Origin: a virus
UHGV virus genome: UHGV-1843114
Strand: one strand, 5' to 3'
DNA length: 10,751 bases
Below, piece after piece: positions 1-10,751 of the stretch (its first letter is position 1; each line of letters opens with the position of its first letter). The translations under genes and the position numbers were made by a program. Below the pieces are notes generated by a model. That model did no database searches. It was not told the DNA's origin and saw only the letters and a program-made list of their open reading frames with translations.

Positions 1-458
1 ACCCGTCACCTAAAATCTACTCAGCGTCGGCAAAGGAGCCATGGGTTCTAGCAACTAACTTACCTGTTGAAATTCGAACACCCAAACAACTTGTTAATAT
101 CTATTCGAAGCGAATGCAGATTGAAGAAACCTTCCGAGACTTGAAAAGTCCTGCCTACGGACTAGGCCTACGCCATAGCCGAACGAGCAGCTCAGAGCGT
201 TTTGATATCATGCTGCTAATCGCCCTGATGCTTCAACTAACATGTTGGCTTGCGGGCGTTCATGCTCAGAAACAAGGTTGGGACAAGCACTTCCAGGCTA
301 ACACAGTCAGAAATCGAAACGTACTCTCAACAGTTCGCTTAGGCATGGAAGTTTTGCGGCATTCTGGCTACACAATAACAAGGGAAGACTCACTCGTGGC
401 TGCAACCCTGCTTACTCAAAATCTATTCACACATGGTTACGTTTTGGGGAAATTATGA
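1..458 (+). CDS. IS10-type DDE transposase, C-terminal ~152 codons (5' end lies outside the window)
   Basis: Reading frame is open from the window start (first full codon at position 3). Translation ...SASAKEPWVLATNLPVEIRTPKQLVNIYSKRMQIEETFRDLKSPAYGLGLRHS...NLFTHGYVLGKL matches the IS10 transposase tail from memory. Stop TGA at 456-458. Confidence 0.9.
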   Translation, partial: PSPKIYSASAKEPWVLATNLPVEIRTPKQLVNIYSKRMQIEETFRDLKSPAYGLGLRHSRTSSSERFDIMLLIALMLQLTCWLAGVHAQKQGWDKHFQANTVRNRNVLSTVRLGMEVLRHSGYTITREDSLVAATLLTQNLFTHGYVLGKL

Positions 459-471
459 GGGGATCTCTCAG
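1..471 (+). mobile_element. IS10-family (IS4 family) insertion sequence, 3' portion; the element continues beyond the window start
   Basis: Transposase C-terminus encoded in 1-458, and the characteristic IS10 terminus GGGGATCTCTCAG ends at 471 (reverse complement CTGAGAGATCCCC). Recognised from memory. The sequence differs at a few positions from the IS10 I remember, so it may be a variant. Confidence 0.9.
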
Positions 472-638
472 CACTTCGCCTCTATCAGGCATGATGCTGA
501 ATTTCTGAATCCCATAGCATCTGGCTGTTCTCCGGTACTGGTTACAGCAACAAAGCGGTCATGAAAGCAAACCTTGAACCCGTTGCGCTTAAGGAACTTG
601 TACGCAATCTGACAGAGTTCGTGGTGTGTTAACGCCAT
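472..638 (-). pseudogene. 5' fragment (55 native codons) of a PD-(D/E)XK-fold gene, possibly MmcB-like, truncated by the IS10 insertion
   Basis: Minus-strand ATG at 636-638 preceded by AAGGAG. It translates to MALTHHELCQIAYKFLKRNGFKVCFHDRFVAVTSTGEQPDAMGFRNSASCLIEAK and then runs straight into the IS10 terminus, which supplies the stop (the frame ends ...AAG TG|C TGA across the 472/471 junction). The PD...EAK spacing fits a PD-(D/E)XK nuclease motif. Too short to appear in the ORF track. Confidence 0.55.
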
Positions 639-639
639 A

Positions 640-1212
640 TCACTCTCCTTTGATGCGAATGTCAGCGACGCGTAATGCGTGTTCTAGGTCAATCAGGTAA
701 AGCCAACTGCCATTTTCTTTAGGTATCATGACATGTCGCTCATCTGCATTTATCGGGTGTCCATATCGAAGGTCGTAGCGAGTCGGTAATTGAACTTCCC
801 GCGCTTCCAGTTCAGCAATACGCTTCTCTGCGGCCTCTGCCCTGCATTGTTCCCGTTGGAACATTTTGTGGGTGCGGTCGAGCGCCTCAAGTCTAGCTGC
901 TGATGTTTTCTCTTCTGCTTCAAGCTCAACGCGCAGCTTCCCAACCGTAAGCGCAATATCCTCGTTCTCCTGGTCGCGGGATTTGATGTATTGCTGGTTT
1001 CTTTCCCGTTCATCCAGTAGTGCCAAAGCAATCTTTGGATTAAAGGCAGCAATAAATTCAGCGTTGTTTTTCAGAACGTGTTGCGCAATGGCCTGACTAC
1101 TTAGTCGGACCTCATAACCACGTGCGCCACGGTGTGGTTTATATGAGTCCCAGTCTCCCCACGTTGCCTTCTCCGCCGCCTCACGCAGTGCCTGATAATT
1201 AATTTCGCTCAC
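640..1212 (-). CDS. Coiled-coil phage protein, Ead/Ea22-like
   Basis: 190-aa ORF. The N-terminus MSEINYQALREAAEKATWGDWD resembles proteins annotated Ead/Ea22-like in enterobacterial prophages (memory). Central region is charged and heptad-like (coiled coil). Its start overlaps the upstream gene's stop (ATGA at 1209-1212). Confidence 0.7.
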   Translation of the reverse strand: MSEINYQALREAAEKATWGDWDSYKPHRGARGYEVRLSSQAIAQHVLKNNAEFIAAFNPKIALALLDERERNQQYIKSRDQENEDIALTVGKLRVELEAEEKTSAARLEALDRTHKMFQREQCRAEAAEKRIAELEAREVQLPTRYDLRYGHPINADERHVMIPKENGSWLYLIDLEHALRVADIRIKGE

Positions 1213-1433
1213 TCTTCATCCTCCAAGTCGGCAACGGCGTCCATCACATCAGAACCGCGAATAACCTCAAAAGCACGGCAGGCCATTTGAAATACCAGTT
1301 GCTCTTGCGGGTGAGGAGACGCCCAATATTTGAAGCCTGGGCGATGCGTGTACCCCATCATTGAATAAAAATCACCAGCAAGCTTAATCGCGGCATCGAC
1401 AAGCTCTCTGTTAGTCATTCTTTTTCCGCTCAC
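1209..1433 (-). CDS. Hypothetical small phage protein (74 aa, acidic C-terminus DLEDEE)
   Basis: ORF with 4-nt start/stop overlaps to both neighbours (1430-1433 and 1209-1212), suggesting translational coupling. No family recognised. Confidence 0.6.
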   Translation of the reverse strand: MSGKRMTNRELVDAAIKLAGDFYSMMGYTHRPGFKYWASPHPQEQLVFQMACRAFEVIRGSDVMDAVADLEDEE

Positions 1434-1960
1434 TGGTTGCCTCCTTTGCGAAGCTCAGCGGCGAAGGCTACTGCGTGATCATGATGTTCAAGCGTGTATG
1501 CACACTCCGCAAACATCTCTACCCCCTGCGCCCGCACTTCAGACAGGCATTTGCGAAACTCGGAAACGTACTGTTCGACGCTCATTCCCCAGCTAAGTGG
1601 ACATTCATTGAATGTTTCGCCTTCGTGCTCTTCATCAGGTAGCTCTTTGGTAAAGAACTCACGTTCAATGGCGTGGAGTGTGTCAGCAAAACGACGTAAG
1701 TTACTCAAACCTGTCGTAATGGAGAATTCAGGAGCATCACATCCGACGCCCATCTGCTGATAAACGGCGGTTTTGAAGGCCTTAAGCCCCGCATTCTCCG
1801 CTGCCAGCGCATTAGCACGCACCAGTTGCACTTCCAGTTGCGTTGCCAAATCGCTGATCAGCTTTGCCACACTGCGCATATCAACGGCACCACATTCTGC
1901 TTTCAGTTCCGAAGCCATCTCATGCCCGGCGGCAACTAACCCTTTGATATTACTTTCCAT
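1430..1960 (-). CDS. Hypothetical phage protein (176 aa)
   Basis: ORF with SD GAGGG about 6 nt upstream of the ATG at 1958-1960. Same strand and coupled to the two downstream genes. Function unknown. Confidence 0.7.
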   Translation of the reverse strand: MESNIKGLVAAGHEMASELKAECGAVDMRSVAKLISDLATQLEVQLVRANALAAENAGLKAFKTAVYQQMGVGCDAPEFSITTGLSNLRRFADTLHAIEREFFTKELPDEEHEGETFNECPLSWGMSVEQYVSEFRKCLSEVRAQGVEMFAECAYTLEHHDHAVAFAAELRKGGNQ

Positions 1961-2021
1961 CTTTACCCTCGCTTATCCACATAACTTATTGATTACATTG
2001 ATAACTAAAAAGATCGTCGAT

Positions 2022-2369
2022 TCAGAACTCTTCGATGTTCCAGCCACCACCTGCTTTCTTTGGCTTAACCGTTACCCCGATGATTCGGAACGGATACTGA
2101 TCTGCGGCGACTTTGGTTTTCACTCTGGCGTCATCGGTCCAGAATCCCCCTTTCACTTCGTGCAGTTCCATCTCGCCGGTGGCGAGCATCACAGCAAAAT
2201 CTGGCGTATAGAACGTGTTGTCAGCTAACCGCAGCTTGATACCCTCAAATCGATACCAGACGATTTCTCCTGCACGTTTACGCAGCTCAAGGTGCTGGCA
2301 ATACGCAGATTCTGTTTTGTTCATCTGGCCTGTTTTGAGTCGACCAAGAGCCTGCATCTGTTTTCTCAT
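2022..2369 (-). CDS. Small PD-(D/E)XK nuclease-fold phage protein (DUF1064-like)
   Basis: 115-aa ORF with a motif ...YTPDFAVMLATGEMELHEVKGG... (D, then E-x-K) typical of PD-(D/E)XK nucleases. Overall resemblance to DUF1064 phage proteins from memory. SD AAGGGG upstream of the ATG at 2367-2369. Confidence 0.75.
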   Translation of the reverse strand: MRKQMQALGRLKTGQMNKTESAYCQHLELRKRAGEIVWYRFEGIKLRLADNTFYTPDFAVMLATGEMELHEVKGGFWTDDARVKTKVAADQYPFRIIGVTVKPKKAGGGWNIEEF

Positions 2370-2371
2370 GA

Positions 2372-2388
2372 TTTACCCCTTGGGTAAT
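2372..2388. promoter_or_regulatory. Operator-like 17-bp inverted repeat tTTACC-ccttg-GGTAAt, overlapping the SD of the DUF1064-like gene
   Basis: Perfectly symmetric half-sites TTACC/GGTAA with a 5-bp spacer. Same motif as the sites in the repressor/cro intergenic region. Confidence 0.45.
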
Positions 2389-2433
2389 TAAAAACCACAT
2401 AAGACACGAAATCAATAGATTTTAGAATATTTT

Positions 2434-2450
2434 ATTACCTCTAAGGTAAT
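2434..2450. promoter_or_regulatory. Operator-like 17-bp inverted repeat ATTACC-tctaa-GGTAAT
   Basis: Perfect 6-bp half-sites. Lies in the AT-rich gap between the P-like gene and the DUF1064-like gene. Confidence 0.45.
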
Positions 2451-2469
2451 TATCGAGACGTAAAAAAAT

Positions 2470-2481
2470 GCGCTATCGCGC
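2470..2481 (-). terminator. Weak candidate intrinsic terminator downstream of the P-like gene
   Basis: On the minus strand, GCGC-gata-GCGC hairpin followed by A plus TTTTTTT, 6 nt after the P-like stop. The stem is only 4 bp, so this is marginal. Confidence 0.3.
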
Positions 2482-2486
2482 TGGTA

Positions 2487-3287
2487 TTACTTGATAAATC
2501 CTGACGCCTTTCCCCGCCTGTATTCCTCCATCAGCCACTGCGCCGGTGTTATTCCCCCAAGGGTGGCGGCGTTAGGCATGCACCCGAAACTTCGCCCTGG
2601 TGGATGGTAAACATCTCTCCCTGTGTCCGGAGGCGTACTCATGGGTTCTGGCTTTGCCTGTATGCTGATCACCGGATCGGGTATCTGCTGTCCGGAAGCC
2701 ACCTTTTTCGCCCAATCATCGAGCAGCCTGCGCGCGTGTTTCTCAACCTCAATCTCGCTAAGCTGGCGCTGATACATTGCACGGCGGGTATCACATACGA
2801 CCCAGTACATAACCGGATGTCGCCACGGGAATCTTTCGGGACCACCAGGATATAAACTTTTTTCCTTGCTGTACCGGTGAAACTCCGCCATCACATCGTC
2901 AATGGTGACGCCAAGAACCATCTTGCTGTCTTTACACCACTTGATGAATTGCCCTGGCGACGGCCAGAACGGAGACTCACTGGCGCGGGCGTGGCGCATA
3001 CCAGCAGAAACCTGTTCACGGGTTCGGATCCCCCCTTCGGCAAACGCAGCAATCCACTGCTGTTTTGCAGCAACTTCCTGCTCTGGCGTCTTCAGGTTGG
3101 TTACCACTGCCGCCGGAAACAGTTGTTTCAGCTGTTTGAAAAGGGCATCAACAAGCCTCTCTGCTGACATGTTCACCACGTTGTCATTGTTGGTGTACTG
3201 ATGCTCATAACCTGACATGCGAGAAAGGGCTTCTCCGTCACGGTTTTGTATCGCGGTAAAAACGTTGTTCACAAGAAATCCTCCCAT
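2487..3287 (-). CDS. Replication protein P-like (DnaB helicase loader)
   Basis: 266-aa ORF. By-eye alignment to lambda P from memory: ...QLFPAAV... / ...ATFPASL..., ...EGGIRTREQVSAGMRHAR... / ...ENGITTMEQVNAGMRVAR..., ...PFWPSPGQFIKWCKD... / ...PFLPSPGQFVAWCRE.... Start is uncertain: the ATG at 3285-3287 overlaps the O-like gene's 3' end; alternative ATGs at 3216-3218 and 3168-3170. Confidence 0.8.
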   Translation of the reverse strand: MGGFLVNNVFTAIQNRDGEALSRMSGYEHQYTNNDNVVNMSAERLVDALFKQLKQLFPAAVVTNLKTPEQEVAAKQQWIAAFAEGGIRTREQVSAGMRHARASESPFWPSPGQFIKWCKDSKMVLGVTIDDVMAEFHRYSKEKSLYPGGPERFPWRHPVMYWVVCDTRRAMYQRQLSEIEVEKHARRLLDDWAKKVASGQQIPDPVISIQAKPEPMSTPPDTGRDVYHPPGRSFGCMPNAATLGGITPAQWLMEEYRRGKASGFIK

Positions 3288-4084
3288 GCTTCAGGGCTGT
3301 TCCAGTGCGGAACGTTGTTATCAGGTAATGTTGATTGCTTCTGTCTGCTAATCTGCAGCCGCCTTGCCAGCTTCTGCTCCCACTGTGCCTGATGGTATGC
3401 CTTACCCTCAGCCATCCAGTAAATTCTGAACTCTGCAAGTTCCTGTGCCGTTGGCAGACTGTCCAGGTAGATCCCCTGCAATGAGCTTTTCCGAAGAAAG
3501 TCATCTGATGGCTGCCATTGTTCATGCATGACAAATTTGCCTAATTGCCCTGGCCCACCAGGAGGAACAAAGTTATTCATCACGGCGTTGTTTGCGCCGG
3601 GGTCATGATGCACAGAATCCCCGTTTTTTGTCCTGCTCTCCCTCTCTTGGTTAAATGACTGGTTATATGACTGGTTCTGGATCCCGTTTTTGGGATCATT
3701 CAACATCCCGTTTTTGGGATCATTCAACATCCCGTTTTTGGGTATATTCCCGTTTTCGGTAACATTACCGTTTTCGGGTTCATTGCCCCCCTCTCGGTTG
3801 CCTTTAATGTTCCCGTTTTTGGTTATATTAAGAGAGAAAACCCGCACTCTTTTTGTCGCTCCCTTTCTCTCCCCGGTATCTGAAATAAGCCCCATTTTCA
3901 TGAGCGATATAAGTCCGGCCTGCACGGTTTTTTTATTCAGGCAAGTGTCTTTAACGAGGCGTTCTATGCTGGGGTAGCAGAGGTTATATTCATCGGCTCT
4001 GTCAGCCATCGAGAGCAGTATGAGCTTTAATGACGAGCTACCTGGATCTGTCTCCCAGGCCCAATCTGTTGCATGTCTGCTCAT
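3269..4084 (-). CDS. Replication initiator (O-like position): N-terminal HTH domain, iteron-encoded Asn/Gly-rich linker, DnaT-like C-terminal region
   Basis: 271-aa ORF, SD GGAG 9 nt upstream of the ATG at 4082-4084. N-terminus MSRHATDWAWETDPGSSSLKLILLSMADRADEYNLCYPSIERLVKDTCLNKKTVQAGLISLMKMGLI matches the HTH pattern of phage replication initiators (memory). Sits immediately upstream of the P-like gene and contains the iteron array. Confidence 0.8.
   Translation of the reverse strand: MSRHATDWAWETDPGSSSLKLILLSMADRADEYNLCYPSIERLVKDTCLNKKTVQAGLISLMKMGLISDTGERKGATKRVRVFSLNITKNGNIKGNREGGNEPENGNVTENGNIPKNGMLNDPKNGMLNDPKNGIQNQSYNQSFNQERESRTKNGDSVHHDPGANNAVMNNFVPPGGPGQLGKFVMHEQWQPSDDFLRKSSLQGIYLDSLPTAQELAEFRIYWMAEGKAYHQAQWEQKLARRLQISRQKQSTLPDNNVPHWNSPEAWEDFL
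3618..3830. repeat. Putative origin of replication: iteron array inside the initiator gene
   Basis: Seven copies of the core tCCCGTTTT(T)GG, starting near 3618, 3681, 3705, 3729, 3748, 3765 and 3810; three are exact 24-bp tandem units ATCCCGTTTTTGGGATCATTCAAC. Also a 10-bp tandem ATGACTGGTT at 3655-3664 and 3667-3676. Same layout as lambda ori inside gene O. Confidence 0.65.
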
Positions 4085-4099
4085 GATTAATCTCCGCTA

Positions 4100-4300
4100 T
4101 CAGCTTGAATGTTGTGGGGAGGAATTAATCATGATCTGCTTAATCTCTGCCCTGATACGACGGTTTGATTCCATGGTGCACTCAACACAGTGTCCGTTGT
4201 AAACCCAGCGTTCACTGTCATGTCCGTGCTTACATGTTTTTCCGGTGTAGTAGCGTTTAAGTCCGCGCTTTGCGGCATCAATACGTGTAATGATTTCCAT
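4100..4300 (-). CDS. Small putative zinc-binding protein (66 aa) at the cII position
   Basis: ATG at 4298-4300 with AGGG about 6 nt upstream. MEIITRIDAAKRGLKRYYTGKTCKHGHDSERWVYNGHCVECTMESNRRIRAEIKQIMINSSPQHSS contains C-x-H-x-H...H-C-x-x-C. The ORF track extends it to a TTG at 4363, which I consider less likely. Confidence 0.55.
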   Translation of the reverse strand: MEIITRIDAAKRGLKRYYTGKTCKHGHDSERWVYNGHCVECTMESNRRIRAEIKQIMINSSPQHSS

Positions 4301-4379
4301 GGTAAGCCCTGTTATTAGTATTGGGATTACGGTCATTTTGTGCTGACACAAAAAAAAGATCAACCAGATTTGGTTTTTT

Positions 4380-4396
4380 ATTACCTTTGAGGTACG
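4380..4396. promoter_or_regulatory. Operator-like site ATTACC-tttga-GGTACg between the terminator and the Zn-ribbon gene
   Basis: Left half-site perfect, right half-site 4 of 6. Same motif family as the repressor/cro intergenic sites. Confidence 0.4.
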
Positions 4397-4409
4397 AATA
4401 GATATGAAA

Positions 4410-4429
4410 AGACCGCCGGATGGCGGTCT
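4410..4429 (-). terminator. Intrinsic terminator downstream of the cro-like gene (tR1-like position)
   Basis: Perfect 8-bp stem AGACCGCC / GGCGGTCT with a 4-nt loop. On the minus strand it is followed by TTTTCATATC. No T-run follows it on the plus strand. Confidence 0.6.
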
Positions 4430-4450
4430 ACAGAGGGTTGTGGCTGGATA

Positions 4451-4681
4451 TCATGAGTAGAAGAAGTATGCCAGTTCTGCTTTTGAGCGCAGCCATTGTC
4501 TTGTTTTACAGGCTTTAAAAAGCCCATTCATCAATACCTTACCTGGCATTTTGCGCTTACCTGTTAAGTGAGTCTGGATATAGTGACTCGTCGTTCCGGC
4601 TTCCTGTGCGAAGGCTTCACGCTCATCCGGAGTAAGTGCAAGCCAGTGCTTTTTGAAATCGAAATGTCCGTTATCGCTCAT
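4451..4681 (-). CDS. Cro-like small HTH DNA-binding protein
   Basis: 76-aa ORF transcribed divergently from the repressor gene, with three operator copies in the shared intergenic region. Putative HTH around ...EAFAQEAGTTSHYIQTHLTGKRKMP.... Family assignment is tentative. Confidence 0.7.
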   Translation of the reverse strand: MSDNGHFDFKKHWLALTPDEREAFAQEAGTTSHYIQTHLTGKRKMPGKVLMNGLFKACKTRQWLRSKAELAYFFYS

Positions 4682-4716
4682 AGCTATTGCCTGATATTTA
4701 TTTCAGATAATAAATA

Positions 4717-4781
4717 TTCACCCATAAGGTAACAAAAATCAAGGATAGTTACCTATGAGGTGCATTTACCTGTTGGGTAAT
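4717..4781. promoter_or_regulatory. OR-like tripartite operator and divergent promoter region between the cro-like and repressor genes
   Basis: Three copies of the 17-bp motif: 4717-4733 tTCACC-cataa-GGTAAc, 4748-4764 gTTACC-tatga-GGTGCa, 4765-4781 tTTACC-tgttg-GGTAAT. A candidate minus-strand -35 TTGATT lies at 4736-4741 (read on the minus strand) with the first site in its spacer. Confidence 0.65.
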
Positions 4782-4835
4782 ATTGCTTTAAATTGAATCA
4801 TCTACTGATTCATATATGAGGCGATTTTCCAGAAA

Positions 4836-5420
4836 ATGAAAAGTATCCAGGACGTCCGCAGGCAAAATCTCAACGACTTGATCGACCGTGAATTCAATGG
4901 TGTTCAGACGCGGATGGCAGAAAAACTTGGAACTCAGGCAAATCTGGTAAACCGCTGGGCTCTTGGCAAGAAGGTTATCGGCGACCAGGTTGCACGAAAA
5001 ATTGAAGCTGCCGCCAATAAACCCCGTAACTGGCTTGATATTGATCGTTCGCTTTCTCAGGAGGGTTTTCAGCCTGTCGGCCCGAGCGATATAGGTCAGC
5101 TGGCGGCTCACAACCTGGAACGCTGGATGAGCGAAAGCCGCGACCTTTCAACACAGGGAAAACTTCACCGCGCATCCGGCGTCGCCCAGGTGACAATCAG
5201 CCGCCTGTTAAACAATGAGGTCAGCGTTTCCATTTCCACTCTGGAGAATGTTGCATCCGCATTCGGGCGTCACGGATATGAACTACTGATTCACCCGCAC
5301 GACCCTGCGACTATCAACTATGACCGCTCACGCTACGCATTGTTACCCGAAACCGAGAAAGCAAAGATCGAAAGTTACATTGAATTTGTCATCAACCAGA
5401 ACGAAAAAAGCAAACAATAA
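4836..5420 (+). CDS. Prophage immunity repressor (CI-like position), two HTH motifs, no LexA/S24-type autocleavage domain
   Basis: 194-aa ORF divergent from the cro-like gene. HTH-like segments QTRMAEKLGTQANLVNRWALGKK and ASGVAQVTISRLLNNEVSVS. No Ala-Gly/Cys-Gly cleavage site with a downstream Ser...Lys dyad was seen. Followed by a strong terminator. Confidence 0.75.
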   Translation: MKSIQDVRRQNLNDLIDREFNGVQTRMAEKLGTQANLVNRWALGKKVIGDQVARKIEAAANKPRNWLDIDRSLSQEGFQPVGPSDIGQLAAHNLERWMSESRDLSTQGKLHRASGVAQVTISRLLNNEVSVSISTLENVASAFGRHGYELLIHPHDPATINYDRSRYALLPETEKAKIESYIEFVINQNEKSKQ

Positions 5421-5440
5421 AACTATAGTTTTCAGTAAGT

Positions 5441-5466
5441 AAGCCGCCTCATGGCGGCTTTTTTAT
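5441..5466 (+). terminator. Rho-independent terminator of the repressor transcript
   Basis: Perfect 8-bp stem AAGCCGCC / GGCGGCTT, loop TCAT, followed by TTTTTTATT. Begins 21 nt after the repressor stop (TAA at 5418-5420). Confidence 0.75.
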
Positions 5467-5476
5467 TGCCAGATAG

Positions 5477-5555
5477 ATTACCTTGCGGGTAATTTTTTTA
5501 ACTCATATCTATTGACACCAAACCAAATAAGCATAATTATTACCTCAACGGTAAC
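5477..5555. promoter_or_regulatory. OL/pL-like region: two operator copies flanking a promoter
   Basis: Sites at 5477-5493 ATTACC-ttgcg-GGTAAT (perfect) and 5539-5555 ATTACC-tcaac-GGTAAc. Consensus -35 TTGACA at 5512-5517, with an AT-rich -10 candidate (AATTAT at 5535-5540, 17-bp spacer) partly overlapping the second site. Confidence 0.55.
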
Positions 5556-5573
5556 AGACCGAGGTAACAAGTT

Positions 5574-5726
5574 ATGCAGTGGAAAATCATCAACGGTTGG
5601 TACTGCGTTACTGCATGCGGATTCATGAGCTGGAAGTTCCGCACCTTACAGGAAGGCATTAAGTGGGCTTTCGTCAGCAAAGAAGCTCGCGATGTAGCCA
5701 ACGATAACGAGATATGGGAGGGCTGA
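5574..5726 (+). CDS. Small hypothetical protein (50 aa), first ORF of the early-left operon
   Basis: ATG at 5574 with SD GAGG about 9 nt upstream; translation MQWKIINGWYCVTACGFMSWKFRTLQEGIKWAFVSKEARDVANDNEIWEG; stop TGA at 5724-5726. Below the ORF-track length cutoff; found by manual translation. Confidence 0.4.
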   Translation: MQWKIINGWYCVTACGFMSWKFRTLQEGIKWAFVSKEARDVANDNEIWEG

Positions 5727-5728
5727 TA

Positions 5729-6028
5729 ATGAACGTTAATCAGCAGAAAAATCTTCAAAAAATCATGCTGGCATTCGACAAGGACTACCGCCTGTCAGAA
5801 CAGCTATATGACCGACAAGTTGAACTGATTGAGAGCATCCGACTTCATCAACTGTCCTCAACTTTCGACGTTGTAACAGGCAAAGGCGTTCGTCAGGAAG
5901 TGCTGGAGGCTGCTAAAGACAGCCCTGAGTTCGAAGAACTGATGGATTCCTACCGGCGCGAGGCAATGGCAATTATCGCCCGCTGGGATCTGGCGGATCG
6001 GATTGATGGGCAGAGGGAAGCGGCATGA
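5729..6028 (+). CDS. Hypothetical protein (99 aa) upstream of the exonuclease
   Basis: ATG at 5729 with SD GGGAGG 7 nt upstream; preferred over the track's 5714 start. Stop overlaps the exonuclease start (ATGATG at 6025-6030). No family recognised. Confidence 0.7.
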   Translation: MNVNQQKNLQKIMLAFDKDYRLSEQLYDRQVELIESIRLHQLSSTFDVVTGKGVRQEVLEAAKDSPEFEELMDSYRREAMAIIARWDLADRIDGQREAA

Positions 6029-6924
6029 TGCAGAACGCTGGAATCATGGATAGAACAAAATACATCGGAGGAAGCGATGTTGCAGGGATTCTTGGAATTA
6101 GCCCATGGCGCACCCCGCTTGAGGTTTATCTGGATAAGGTCCAGCCACGTGTCAAACCAGTAGACCCAAGCAAGCAGAAAGTTTTCACGCGTGGCCAGCG
6201 TATGGAGCCATACGTAATAGACCTGCTTTCTGAGGAAACAGGGATGGAAATCGTTCATCGCGGAAACCGCTATATCCACCGTGATTACGATTTTATTGCA
6301 GCTGAGATCGATGCAGAAGCAGCGTCAGGCGAGAACATTGAGATCAAAACAGTTAGTCCGTTCAAAGCCAAAGAATGGGGAGAAATCCAGACAGATGCAA
6401 TTCCTGTGCATTACACGGCCCAGGCCATGCACGGGTTGATGGTTACAAACAAACAGGTATGCGTTTTCGGTGTGCTTATCGGTGGCGACGACTTCCGAAT
6501 CTATCGGGTTGAGCGTGATGAAGAAACTATCCAGGCGATCTTAGAAAAAGAAATCGCTTTCTGGGACCGAGTGAAAAATCTTAACCCGCCGGAAGCTACC
6601 AGCGTAAGCGATGTATCGCTGATGTTTGAGAAAGATGCAGGGACAAGTATCGAGGCTGACGGAAAGGCACTCGCACTATTCAACGATCTACGAGACATGA
6701 AGTCACGCAGAAAATCACTGGAAGAAGAAATAGCTATATCAGAAGAGAAGCTGAAGATGTACATGCAAGAGCACTCAGTCCTGACCCTGGACGGAAAGCC
6801 GCTCTGCACATGGAAATCTCAGATCAGCAACAGATTCGACCAGAAGCTATTCCAGTCAGTACACCCTGAGTTATTCGAAAAATTCAAAACAACAACGACA
6901 CAACGCGTCTTCAGAATGAAGTAA
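6025..6924 (+). CDS. YqaJ-type viral exonuclease (lambda Exo-like recombination exonuclease)
   Basis: Motifs ...YIGGSDVAGILGISPWRTPLEVY... and ...IEIKTVSPFKAKEWGE...VHYTAQAMHGLMVTNK...FWDRV... match the YqaJ-like PD-(D/E)XK recombinase family (memory). Directly upstream of recT. Start is 6025 or 6028 (or 6046). Confidence 0.85.
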   Translation: MMQNAGIMDRTKYIGGSDVAGILGISPWRTPLEVYLDKVQPRVKPVDPSKQKVFTRGQRMEPYVIDLLSEETGMEIVHRGNRYIHRDYDFIAAEIDAEAASGENIEIKTVSPFKAKEWGEIQTDAIPVHYTAQAMHGLMVTNKQVCVFGVLIGGDDFRIYRVERDEETIQAILEKEIAFWDRVKNLNPPEATSVSDVSLMFEKDAGTSIEADGKALALFNDLRDMKSRRKSLEEEIAISEEKLKMYMQEHSVLTLDGKPLCTWKSQISNRFDQKLFQSVHPELFEKFKTTTTQRVFRMK

Positions 6925-6933
6925 GGAGAAAAA

Positions 6934-7956
6934 ATGTCTATCAATGCACTTAAGGCAGCGGCTACCGGTAACCAAGTTGCACATCATAATGAGAAACCAA
7001 CAACTCTGGCCGGACTTCTGGCAGACCCAAAAATTAAAGCTCAGATGGCTTTGGCACTTCCAAAGCACATGACAGCAGACCGTCTGGCGCGCATAGCAAC
7101 CACAGAGATCCGAAAGGTTCCAAAACTTGCATCATGCGACCAAGCCAGCTTCCTGGGGGCAATTATGCAATGTGCCCAATTGGGTCTTGAACCAGGCGGA
7201 GCTCTTGGACACGCTTACCTGATACCGTTCGACAAACGCCAGAAAGTAAATGGAAGATGGGAAACCGTATCTACAGAAGCACAGCTGATTATCGGCTATC
7301 GCGGAATGATTGACCTTGCCCGCCGCTCTGGGCAGATCCTGAGTATCTCGGCTCGTACCGTACATACAAACGACAAATTCAGCTACTCATACGGCCTGGA
7401 AGAAACGCTCGAGCATTTACCTTGCGAAACAGGTGACCGCGGAGAATTAACGCACGTTTACGCCGTTGCACGACTGAAAGATGGCGGAGTCCAATTTGAA
7501 GTTATGAGCCGGGCAGACATTGAGAAAGTTCGTGCACTGAGCAAAGCCGGTAGCAGTGGCCCATGGGTTGATCACTTCGATGAGATGGCTAAAAAAACAG
7601 TAATTCGCCGACTATTCAAATATCTTCCTGTTTCTATTGAAATGCAGAAGGCTGTTGTTATGGATGAGCGCGCTGAAGCTGGACTTAGCCAAGATAACGC
7701 AGCTGTTATCACTGGTGAATATTCCGTAGTTGACGATGAGCGTCAACACCTGTCGCCAATTTCAGATTCAGAACGAGAAGAAGCTCGAGAATATATCATC
7801 GCGATACTTAATAGCCTGGATCCATCTGCTGAAGATGCAAAAACGATGTTCAAGCGCGCTGAAAATGAGATTAACACCATGGCTGAAAAGCTCGGTGATG
7901 AATATCACCAAAAATTCATGATGACGCTTAACGATATGCGTCCAGAATTCGAGTAA
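6934..7956 (+). CDS. recT: RecT-family single-strand annealing recombinase
   Basis: 340-aa ORF with SD AAGGAG 7 nt upstream. RecT-like segments ...GHAYLIPFDKRQKVNGRWET...LIIGYRGMIDLARRSGQ.... Paired with the YqaJ-type exonuclease. Confidence 0.9.
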   Translation: MSINALKAAATGNQVAHHNEKPTTLAGLLADPKIKAQMALALPKHMTADRLARIATTEIRKVPKLASCDQASFLGAIMQCAQLGLEPGGALGHAYLIPFDKRQKVNGRWETVSTEAQLIIGYRGMIDLARRSGQILSISARTVHTNDKFSYSYGLEETLEHLPCETGDRGELTHVYAVARLKDGGVQFEVMSRADIEKVRALSKAGSSGPWVDHFDEMAKKTVIRRLFKYLPVSIEMQKAVVMDERAEAGLSQDNAAVITGEYSVVDDERQHLSPISDSEREEAREYIIAILNSLDPSAEDAKTMFKRAENEINTMAEKLGDEYHQKFMMTLNDMRPEFE

Positions 7957-8005
7957 CCACCACCGCGGCGCCACACGCGCCGCACTGCAACCAAGAGAGG
8001 TATTT

Positions 8006-8254
8006 ATGAAAGGTGCATTAGGTAAGAAGGAACTCCTGGCGGTGGTGCCACTGTCATGGAGCACTATCGACCGTATGGAGCGCGCAGGTGAATTTCCTAA
8101 ACGCTGGTATATCACTGACAAACGCTGCGCATGGAACCGTGACGAAGTTGAGCGTTGGCTTGATGAACGTCAGGCAGCAAGCCCGGCAGAGTTCCAGGGT
8201 AAAAAGCCTCCTGTTCAGCAACGTGTATATCGTCCTGTGAGCAACGCTGCATGA
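8006..8254 (+). CDS. AlpA-family phage regulatory protein / excisionase-like HTH protein
   Basis: 82-aa ORF with SD AGAGAGG. ...LSWSTIDRMERAGEFPKRWYITDKRCAWNRDEVERWL... matches the AlpA/Xis-type pattern (memory). This family is typically found near P4-type integrases. Confidence 0.8.
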   Translation: MKGALGKKELLAVVPLSWSTIDRMERAGEFPKRWYITDKRCAWNRDEVERWLDERQAASPAEFQGKKPPVQQRVYRPVSNAA

Positions 8255-8363
8255 GTGTGCTGCTAAGGCACTGGAGCAAATGGTCAGGATGGTACTTATT
8301 CCTGGCCTCTGTTTCAGCATGGCTTTATCTGCTGGCATTAATTTTCAGAGAGGGTTGGATTAA

Positions 8364-8663
8364 GTGAGAAAGTTAAGCCGACTTGAAAAATATCACATGA
8401 ACAAGGTTTCAATGCGCAGTCCGTCAAAGATTGTCGCCGTTACTCCTGCGGCGATAGAGATCGAAAAACGCGCGATTGAAAGAGAGAAAAAAGGGCAGTT
8501 CCGCATTGCCGCTCACCTTTGGCTTCAGTGTATGGATGTTGCTTCTGGTGATGTTGAGCGTGCAAGGATCGCGGTTCGCAGGGACCAATGTATCACAAAA
8601 GGTAACGGCCTTCGCCGTGGAGACTATAGCGGTATAGGATGTTGCGGGGTGGTTTATGACTAA
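8364..8663 (+). CDS. Small regulator, ANR-like (AraC negative regulator family) candidate
   Basis: ORF with uncertain start (GTG 8364, ATG 8397 or ATG 8415). ...FRIAAHLWLQCMDVASGDVERARIAVRRDQC... fits the ANR-family pattern as I remember it. Its 3' end overlaps the methyltransferase start by 8 nt. Confidence 0.5.
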   Translation: MRKLSRLEKYHMNKVSMRSPSKIVAVTPAAIEIEKRAIEREKKGQFRIAAHLWLQCMDVASGDVERARIAVRRDQCITKGNGLRRGDYSGIGCCGVVYD

Positions 8664-9306
8664 GAAATACACACTAATCTATGCAGATCCACCCTGGGTA
8701 TACCGGGACAAAGCCGCAGATGGTAATCGCGGTGCCGGTTTTAAATATCCGGTTATGAGTGTGCTGGATATCTGCCGCCTTCCTGTGTGGGATTTGGCCG
8801 ATGAAAACTGTCTGTTGGCCATGTGGTGGGTGCCAACACAACCACTCGAAGCACTAAAAGTTGTTGAAACCTGGGGATTCCGTCTGATGACGATGAAGGG
8901 CTTCACGTGGATAAAATGTGGTAGTCGACAACCAGATAAACTGGTTATGGGTATGGGACACATGACTCGCGCCAATAGTGAAGATTGCCTGTTTGCGGTA
9001 AAGGGAAAACTACCTACGCGCATTAATGCAGGGATCGTTTAGTCATTTACCGCACCGCGGCTTGAGCATTCAAGAAAGCCAGATATCGTTCGTGAAAAAC
9101 TTGTGCAATTATTAGGCGATGTTTCTCGCATTGAACTGTTCGCCCGCCAGACGTCTCATGGCTTCGATGTTTGGGGTAATCAGTGCGAAGACCCGGCAGT
9201 GCAACTACACCCTGGATACGCGTTGGATATTGGCGGATTAACAAATGCATTCAGCAATGCTCCGCTGTCACCAACAGACAACCAGGGGCGGGAGCGTGCT
9301 GCATGA
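8656..9306 (+). pseudogene. MT-A70-family DNA N6-adenine methyltransferase interrupted by a single in-frame TAG at 9040-9042
   Basis: The N-terminal ORF (8656-9042) carries the catalytic motif ADPPW. The same frame continues after the TAG as SFTAPRLEHSRKPDIVREKLVQLLGDVSRIELFARQTSHGFDVWGNQ..., which contains the family's conserved HSRKP and ELFAR...WGN motifs, to a stop at 9304-9306. The track splits it into two ORFs in the same frame. Confidence 0.75.
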
Positions 9307-9497
9307 ACAGGGCATCACCAGCAGATTTAAGAAAATGCCTTGAAACTGCAAACATGCTTGCACACAGCGGGATCAGGTTTGTTCCAATTCCCGCTGTCAC
9401 TGATGCTGAATTTGCAACACTGTCAGCAATATTCGAAAACAAAATTGAATCACTGGCAGCAGAAGCAGAGATGGAAGAAAATCAGCAGAACTATTAA
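9303..9497 (+). CDS. Hypothetical small protein (64 aa)
   Basis: ATG at 9303 overlaps the methyltransferase-frame stop (ATGA). Translation MNRASPADLRKCLETANMLAHSGIRFVPIPAVTDAEFATLSAIFENKIESLAAEAEMEENQQNY. The track's longer 9183 start is less likely. Convergent with the integrase. Confidence 0.55.
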   Translation: MNRASPADLRKCLETANMLAHSGIRFVPIPAVTDAEFATLSAIFENKIESLAAEAEMEENQQNY

Positions 9498-9500
9498 ACG

Positions 9501-10751
9501 TTATTCCCCCGCCATCCACTTCTCAAACTTCGACGGGGAGAACGGAATCAGATCCGTATGCTCCCCGTCAATCCATGAATCAATCATATCGGCCCACTGC
9601 TGCAACATGTAGGCGCGCTGTCTGGCGTATTCCGCTTTGTTATATACGGCGCGCACACCTTTCTGCTCATGTGCCAGAGCCTTTTCAATCCAGTCTGAAG
9701 GATAACCAGCCTCATGCAACAACGTACTGGCTGTACGGCGCATATCATGTACAGTGAAGTCCTGAATATGCTCACCATCTTCATTTATTATTTTCACCGT
9801 TCTGTCGATCAGAGAGTTCAGCGCGGCATTAGATAATGGCTTCCGGAAATTGTAACGACCAGGAACCAGATATTCACTTCCACCAGCGCACATCTGCAAC
9901 CCGACCAATATATCCTGTGCCTGTTTAGGCAGGTAAATAACGTGCGCCCGGCTTCCCTTCATGCGGTCTGGAGGAATTGTCCATGTCCATTTTTTAAAAT
10001 CTATTTCATCCCACGTTGCATTGGTGAATTCGCCCTTACGAACCATAGTGATAAGCACCAGTTTTAAAGCCATTTTCATAGTGCCCATAGCACCAATGGC
10101 ATCCAGCGTGCGGAAGAACAGGCCAATTTCTTCTGGTGTCAGTGTTCGCTCTCGTGGTTTAAATATGGCGATAGACGAAGGTTTAATGTCAGCCGCAGGA
10201 TTAAACAAACCATGACCACGGTCATTGGCGTGACGGTATACGCTACTGATGATCTCCCTGGCCTGCACTGCTGTTGCCCGGCCACCGCGTTCGACAATCC
10301 GGTCACACAAATCACGAACCATCGATGTGGTAATTTCAGCCATCATTTTATTGCCAAGAACCGGAAGTATGTCACGGTCGATCACCGCCTGTTTCATTGC
10401 GCGGGTACTGTCAGCCAGGATGACGTGTTTCATATAACTGTCGGTATGTACCGCAAACGTCTCGGCACCACGAATCTTTTTGATACCGTCACGTTTAGCC
10501 GCAGCCGGTGACTGGCCTGCTTTAAGCAGCTTCTTTGCAGCAATCAGTTCTTCTCGCGCTTCTGCCAGGCTGATACCGTCACGCCCATACTGCCCGATTA
10601 CCAGTGTTTCGCGGCGACCGTTGATACGGTAGTCATAGCGAAACGAGACCGTGCCTGACGTAAGCACAGCTACATACAGCCCGTCACGATCGGAGACCTT
10701 GTACAGTTTGTCCTGCGGCTTGAGGTTTTTTAATTTTGTATCGGTAAGCAC
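9501..10751 (-). CDS. int: Tyrosine site-specific integrase, P4-type; N-terminus at or just beyond the right window edge
   Basis: N-terminal ...LTDTKLKNLKPQDKLYKVSDRDGLYVAVLTSGTVSFRYDYRINGRRETL... is the typical P4-family integrase arm domain. C-terminal catalytic signature HDMRRTASTLL ... ALAHE...VRAVYNKAEY (H-x-x-R and the Tyr nucleophile). The frame is open to the last base of the window. Confidence 0.9.
   Translation of the reverse strand: MLTDTKLKNLKPQDKLYKVSDRDGLYVAVLTSGTVSFRYDYRINGRRETLVIGQYGRDGISLAEAREELIAAKKLLKAGQSPAAAKRDGIKKIRGAETFAVHTDSYMKHVILADSTRAMKQAVIDRDILPVLGNKMMAEITTSMVRDLCDRIVERGGRATAVQAREIISSVYRHANDRGHGLFNPAADIKPSSIAIFKPRERTLTPEEIGLFFRTLDAIGAMGTMKMALKLVLITMVRKGEFTNATWDEIDFKKWTWTIPPDRMKGSRAHVIYLPKQAQDILVGLQMCAGGSEYLVPGRYNFRKPLSNAALNSLIDRTVKIINEDGEHIQDFTVHDMRRTASTLLHEAGYPSDWIEKALAHEQKGVRAVYNKAEYARQRAYMLQQWADMIDSWIDGEHTDLIPFSPSKFEKWMAGE

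Follow-up and report, generated by a model that had tools for sequence, protein, structure and literature searches.

The DNA analysed here, referred to below as the window, is a 10,751-nt stretch of the virus genome UHGV-1843114. It belongs to a lambdoid-type prophage of E. coli with YqaJ/RecT, DnaT-like and P replication genes and with an integrase of the type that adjoins guaA in a relative. The early operon lies on the minus strand and comprises a 76-aa gene (beside a divergent HTH repressor), the DnaT-like gene, P, a DUF1064 gene, two small genes, an Ead/Ea22-like gene and a nuclease-like gene. The last of these, past the replication genes, the DUF1064 gene and the Ead/Ea22-like gene, closes the visible part of the operon, and its reading frame runs into the end of an IS10 element with which the window begins (Table 1). 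In a related prophage whose integrase adjoins guaA, the genes beyond the nuclease-like gene encode DUF551, DUF4752 and ASCH proteins and terminase subunits.

The closest relatives among complete genomes show about 98% identity over 88–94% of positions 472–10751, the homology starting only at about 905–915, inside the Ead/Ea22-like gene. Therefore, the 3' part of the latter and the nuclease-like gene form a separate mosaic module, which is shared at 100% with prophages of the O104:H4 type.

Table 1. Features at the junction of the insertion sequence and the prophage operon (window coordinates)
Feature	Position	Strand	Remarks
IS10/ISVsa5-type insertion sequence (IS4 family), last 471 bases, to the inside end	1..471	+	2 mismatches in 471 against a complete IS
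IS10 transposase C-terminus, 151 codons and stop	3..458	+	Frame ends ...THGYVLGKL*
IS10 inside-end terminal inverted repeat, minus-strand reading CTGAGAGATCCCCTCATAATTTC	449..471	.	Alignment partner: CTGATGAATCCCCTAATGATTTT, outside end of the complete copy
56-aa fusion ORF	468..638	-	Last base of Cys56 and TGA come from the IS terminus; product annotated as WP_122987163.1 in NZ_CP135674.1
Retained 5' fragment of the 171-codon MmcB-like putative PD-(D/E)XK gene	472..638	-	Codons 1–55 and two bases of codon 56
9-bp IS10 target CACTTCGCC (GGCGAAGTG in gene sense, gene nt 159–167)	472..480	.	One copy of the expected duplication; duplicated in NZ_CP135674.1
Ead/Ea22-like gene, upstream in the same operon	640..1212	-	PF13935 (Pfam) matches the gene called in the source contig; annotations
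Shine-Dalgarno sequence AAGGAG, six bases 5' of the ATG	645..650	-	Read from the sequence

The IS10 end and the fusion reading frame

The insertion sequence of the window terminates as ...GGGGATCTCTCAG at position 471, which is the inside end of IS10. Its reverse complement was compared with the first 471 bases of the 1329-bp IS in the plasmid NZ_CP135674.1, and the window sequence is 100% identical to E. coli copies labelled "IS4-like element ISVsa5 family transposase" in RefSeq. The terminal inverted repeats of IS10 are present at the inside end in the window and at the outside end in the plasmid copy (L003). A complete IS10 has 1329 bp and one DDE transposase; the visible 471 bp and 151 codons are 99.6–100% identical to full copies. 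The Pfam model DDE_Tnp_1 gave a weak, partial match below the threshold with the last 114 aa of the transposase fragment. The element resembles IS10 (IS10-Right of Tn10; ISVsa5 family at NCBI) in its termini, CTGAGAGATCCCC at the inside and CTGATGAATCCCC at the outside end, in the length and the 9-bp target duplication of the complete copy found at the same site and in a target fitting the relaxed consensus. It does not differ from IS10 in anything substantial, and the window variant is distinguished from that of the isolate assembly GCA_019366115.1 (L007) at 5 positions among the initial 76 bases of the inside end.

The boundary between the IS and the gene falls exactly on the last IS10 nucleotide. 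With the intact gene continuing as ...EAKCSRADLL... to 171 aa, this position was judged not to be due to chance. The fusion ORF opens with the ATG at 636–638, and its product ends in ...PDAMGFRNSASCLIEAKC. At the junction, the gene reads ...PDAMGFRNSASCLIEAK, after which its TG and the C of IS base 471 make up the codon of Cys56 and IS bases 470–468 give the TGA. The IS terminus contributes CTGA in all, base 471 changing the Cys56 codon from TGT to TGC. The initial annotation had described an IS10 terminus ending at 471 and a minus-strand ORF with an ATG at 636–638 and a good Shine-Dalgarno sequence that runs straight into it and yields 56 aa. These points hold, judging from the terminal sequence, the identity to complete and annotated IS copies, the AAGGAG motif and the position of the stop. 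Its statement that the stop codon is assembled across the junction has to be corrected: the TGA belongs wholly to the IS, and only the Cys56 codon spans the junction.

The stop codon of the Ead/Ea22-like gene (640–642) is located between the Shine-Dalgarno sequence and the ATG, and the ORF begins one base past that stop. Owing to this arrangement, translational coupling of the two genes is probable. A promoter scan of positions 1–1300 found none, and the three terminator-like hits in the same segment were all in the range of shuffled sequence. The mechanical ORF list also contains a 43-aa ORF on the plus strand (433–564), which starts in the IS10 end, crosses the junction into phage DNA and is antisense to the fusion ORF; it comes from that list only, and nothing marks it as a gene.

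The intact gene and its product

In the three complete genomes of E. coli O39:NM F8704-2 (L001), O104:H4 2011C-3493 (L004) and strain 20AR0300 (L005), the 167 nt of the retained fragment run on without a break into an ORF of 171 codons. There are no differences over 167 nt between the window and the O104:H4 copy. Homologs of 160–176 aa were found in Klebsiella, Lelliottia, Cronobacter, Serratia, Morganella, Providencia and other genera. An exhaustive HMMER search returned 2533 cluster representatives, typically of 150–180 aa, that match residues 3–160. By tblastn, the protein was detected in 642 phage records, in 255 of them at a coverage of at least 80%, and Stx1a and Stx2a phages have intact 171-aa copies. 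At least 80% of the gene is present in 961 of the 984 complete E. coli records holding it (about 97%). A mosaic boundary at codon 56 was considered and rejected, as complete genomes nearly always carry the gene end to end.

Truncation of the gene by the IS, as proposed in the initial annotation, is borne out by these data: the reading frame has been shortened from 171 to 56 codons, and the homologs are not naturally about 56 aa long. The gene product had also been called decapitated. The truncation implied by this word is real and the wording is loose, for the N-terminal third is kept and the C-terminal 115 residues are lost.

Sequence comparison confirmed the 171-aa product as a single-domain putative PD-(D/E)XK protein from an unnamed family of phage proteins, to which the MmcB-like (DUF1052) proteins are distant sisters. 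In an alignment of 47 diverse members, D40, D60, G78, R81, W99 and E137 are invariant and E37, P39, E53, K55, S57, D64, K67, R70 and R146 nearly so; the resulting pattern is P-D ... E-x-K, followed by S-R-x-D-F-x-x-D-x-x-K. The alpha-beta-beta-beta-alpha-beta core fold of the PD-(D/E)XK proteins was recognised, as was the D...(D/E)-x-K signature on strands 2 and 3, with D40 invariant and E53 and K55 present in at least 90% of the 47 members. The family profile matched the PDB entry 3DNX (SPO1766) with an E value of 3e-4, that for Hjc being about 0.4. Individual members gave weak Pfam matches to Hjc (17 of 47) and to MmcB-like proteins (8 of 47, best E value 2.9e-4), and also to the AHJR-like and UPF0102 families. 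The alignment motif, the core fold and the profile match agree with the earlier assignment of the gene to the PD-(D/E)XK fold. The D...EAK motif that had been noticed in the retained peptide corresponds to D40...E53-x-K55 and does lie in the stub.

The closest structural similarity is that to 3DNX, the solved member of the MmcB-like family. The gathering threshold of Pfam PF06319 is not reached, and the intact E. coli protein is without a Pfam hit. With Pfam and NCBIfam, no model matched the intact protein at threshold; PHROGs gave matches only to families with no assigned function, and a literature search found no paper on this protein. Unlike the MmcB-like/DUF1052 family (PF06319; 3DNX, SPO1766; Caulobacter MmcB), the nuclease-like family scores below the Pfam threshold and has a longer C-terminal part with the conserved E137 and R146. 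It is carried by phages and prophages (Enterobacterales, Vibrio, Ackermannviridae), whereas MmcB is a chromosomal SOS gene of alpha-proteobacteria. A role in tolerance to DNA cross-linking agents is known only for Caulobacter MmcB (PMC9578287). Similarity to the archaeal Holliday junction resolvase Hjc and to the AHJR-like and UPF0102/YraN proteins is far weaker than that to 3DNX, and nothing points to junction resolution by the phage protein. A large unnamed phage family, with about 2500 sequence clusters, can now be described as putative PD-(D/E)XK proteins nearest to the MmcB-like repair nucleases.

According to the alignment and the secondary structure of the model, the stub keeps helix 1 and strands 1–3 with E37, D40, E53 and K55. 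Helix 2 (S57, D60, D64, K67 and R70), the fourth core strand and the C-terminal half are lost, that is, 115 of the 171 residues. Since these elements are missing, the stub should be inactive.

The nine-base target and the origin of the junction

The nine bases next to the IS (472–480) are CACTTCGCC, as originally read, and the duplication predicted for them was confirmed indirectly through an independent insertion at the same site. The plasmid NZ_CP135674.1 of E. coli TUM9803 carries, at this very position but in the opposite orientation, a complete 1329-bp IS10 flanked on either side by CACTTCGCC, and in-silico removal of the IS together with one copy of this repeat restores the 171-aa ORF. 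As the plasmid demonstrates, IS10 does insert cleanly here.

Further cases were found through a look-up by the exact 56-aa product, a method able to catch insertions at this site alone. In GCA_019366115.1, the inside end adjoins the gene as in the window, within another prophage context and with the IS variant mentioned above. In GCA_050525085.1 (L008) and in a gut metagenome (L010), the outside end adjoins the gene fragment, as in NZ_CP135674.1. The two orientations are not derivable from one event, and therefore IS10 has inserted at this site at least twice; the differences between the IS variants suggest that there were probably three or more insertions. The window junction in the same orientation was absent from 5,426 complete E. 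coli genomes, the PLSDB plasmids and the INPHARED phages when searched for exactly. The opposite-orientation NZ_CP135674.1 was the sole case in these collections, and the event is rare in finished genomes (one record). Two pattern scans of one-genome-per-species contigs gave neither junction. The single match to a 24-base junction pattern in a metagenome scan (JGI Ga0185320_11165464, positions 2613–2636; L014) was rejected as chance, its flanks being neither IS10 nor this gene; short junction patterns need such flank checks.

The target GGCGAAGTG agrees with the classical consensus NGCTNAGCN at 4 of 6 positions and fully matches, on both strands, the relaxed consensus NRCNNNGYN (PMC4574204). 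There are 7 NRCNNNGYN sites in the nuclease-like gene and 149 in the window; thus, the core consensus alone does not explain the reuse of the site. IS10 has been reported to reuse single non-canonical sites (PMC4574204). The hot spot in the cat promoter of pSU8 (PMC4574204) is similar to the present site in that independent insertions occurred at one exact nucleotide and in that the 9-bp target departs from NGCTNAGCN and fits the relaxed consensus. Unlike those at pSU8, the events described here are natural, involve more than one strain and prophage as well as both orientations, and have no known selection behind them. As identical 9 bp were used in both orientations in other strains, the site would be a preferred IS10 target. 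The reuse of the same nine bases in different strains adds a natural example of site preference.

Another element was found close to this position in GCA_019647595.1 (L015, positions 1501–1874; about 472–476 of the window). It follows ...GAGGCGAAG, two bases from the IS10 cut, and matching genomes label it an IS3-family transposase. The result is a 55-aa product stopped by the IS's own TGA.

Taken together, the junction of the window very probably arose when IS10 transposed, as a simple insertion, into an accessory, non-essential gene of an E. coli prophage of the lambdoid type. The element would have cut GGCGAAGTG at gene nt 159–167 and come to lie with its inside end beside the 5' fragment. 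From the phage start codon, nothing but the 56-aa stub can be made, because the CTGA of the IS terminus completes Cys56 and supplies the TGA. Simple insertion implies a second junction, at which ...ACGAGAACACTTCGCC would meet CTGATGAATCCCC..., followed by codons 57–171. The IS would part the downstream genes (DUF551, DUF4752, ASCH and terminase in the relative) from the early promoter. Judging from the published biology of IS10, their transcription would then need read-through of the IS or its outward-facing promoters; with the element oriented as in the window, its outside end would point towards what remains downstream. The event is of an already-known kind, an ordinary IS10 knock-out of a dispensable prophage accessory gene. 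Such disruptions are routine and carry little weight for biology at large.

IS10 and Tn10 are able to promote adjacent deletions and inversions, and the other flank of the element is beyond the start of the contig. The IS might accordingly mark an IS-mediated rearrangement, as the initial annotation suggested for the distal part of the prophage; the 3' remainder of the gene and the distal genes of the prophage would then be lost or displaced. This course is unlikely, given that the sole instance with both flanks (NZ_CP135674.1) is a clean insertion and that the 10.3 kb of phage DNA in the window contain nothing out of order relative to related prophages (88–94% covered, about 98% identity).

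It is likewise unlikely that the recurrent hits reflect selection for nuclease inactivation or prophage crippling beyond the target preference of IS10. The same gene is also broken by other junctions, after G99 in the homolog P0100 and by the IS3-family element of L015. About 97% of the copies in complete genomes are, however, intact, and the relaxed IS10 consensus is matched at the site. Since the gene would be inactivated by an insertion anywhere in it, the use of one set of 9 bp in both orientations speaks for target choice; moreover, the search method could find insertions at this site alone. The occurrence of IS10 in both orientations and of an IS3-family element two bases away might also be read as a natural hot spot for mobile elements at gene nt 159–167, with repeated knock-out of the nuclease, or of the operon that follows it, perhaps being favoured in lysogens. 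This is a doubtful extension of the data; if it were true, the gene would carry a cost or possess an anti-host or anti-phage activity worth study.

Simple transposition also accounts for the junction far better than a chimera produced in assembly where a metagenomic contig ends. The contig from which the window comes (ENA ERZ1303749 NODE_1576, 15,472 nt, SPAdes metagenome) does begin at window base 1, inside the IS, a multicopy repeat. The chimera is nevertheless very improbable: the break coincides exactly with the final nucleotide of the IS10 inverted repeat, the same junction recurs in the independent isolate assemblies GCA_019366115.1 and GCA_050525085.1, and the finished plasmid NZ_CP135674.1 shows both junctions with the target duplication.

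Short entries for the gene in databases

The idea that 56 aa is the natural full length of a small phage gene, to which the IS is merely adjacent, could draw on phrog_16308 of PHROG (a 58-position family matching residues 1–55), on the 56-aa RefSeq entry WP_122987163.1 and on many database entries of 55–58 aa, but it has been refuted by intact 171-aa homologs: the ORFs of L001, L004 and L005 are uninterrupted, homologs of 150–180 aa exist in many genera and phages, the full-length protein is predicted by modelling as one confident domain, and the 55–58-aa entries, on inspection of their DNA, are contig-end partials of intact sequence or IS-truncated copies.

RefSeq/PGAP recognises no more than the initial 179 bases of the intact gene in the three genomes examined and calls them a "frameshifted" hypothetical pseudogene. 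The calls are at 2989–3167 in L001 and at 5989–6167 in both L004 and L005, and they are homologous to window positions 460–638. The ORF of these genomes is uninterrupted for 171 codons despite the call; the same annotation is found in L002. This is probably a spreading annotation artefact, in which an intact gene is called a pseudogene, the stub receives an accession (WP_122987163.1) and PHROG 16308 becomes a family of stubs. The RefSeq entries are worth correcting.

Draft contigs end near gene nt 165–173 far more often than elsewhere, and most of these ends lie in intact sequence. The contigs ending at 55, 56 and 57 aa numbered 39, 44 and 20, respectively, with at most 10 for other lengths (among 15 members listed from a cluster of 90). 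The short draft entries concerned are P0272 (55 aa), P0269, P0270 and P0283 (56 aa) and P0273 (57 aa), from loci L009, L011–L013 and L016–L034. The pile-up of contig ends likely arises where assemblies fork, either between copies of the gene or between those with the IS and intact ones.

Some homologs are broken or fused at other points (P0100, P0045, P0088, P0105, P0074 and P0104), that is, after G99-G100, L103 or P116, or with the N-terminus replaced; P0045 comprises 61 member sequences. The tail of P0100 after G99, GNDSNLLIVFYVQIMPDDFVMQLHRF, resembles what is presumably read-through of an IS1 end.
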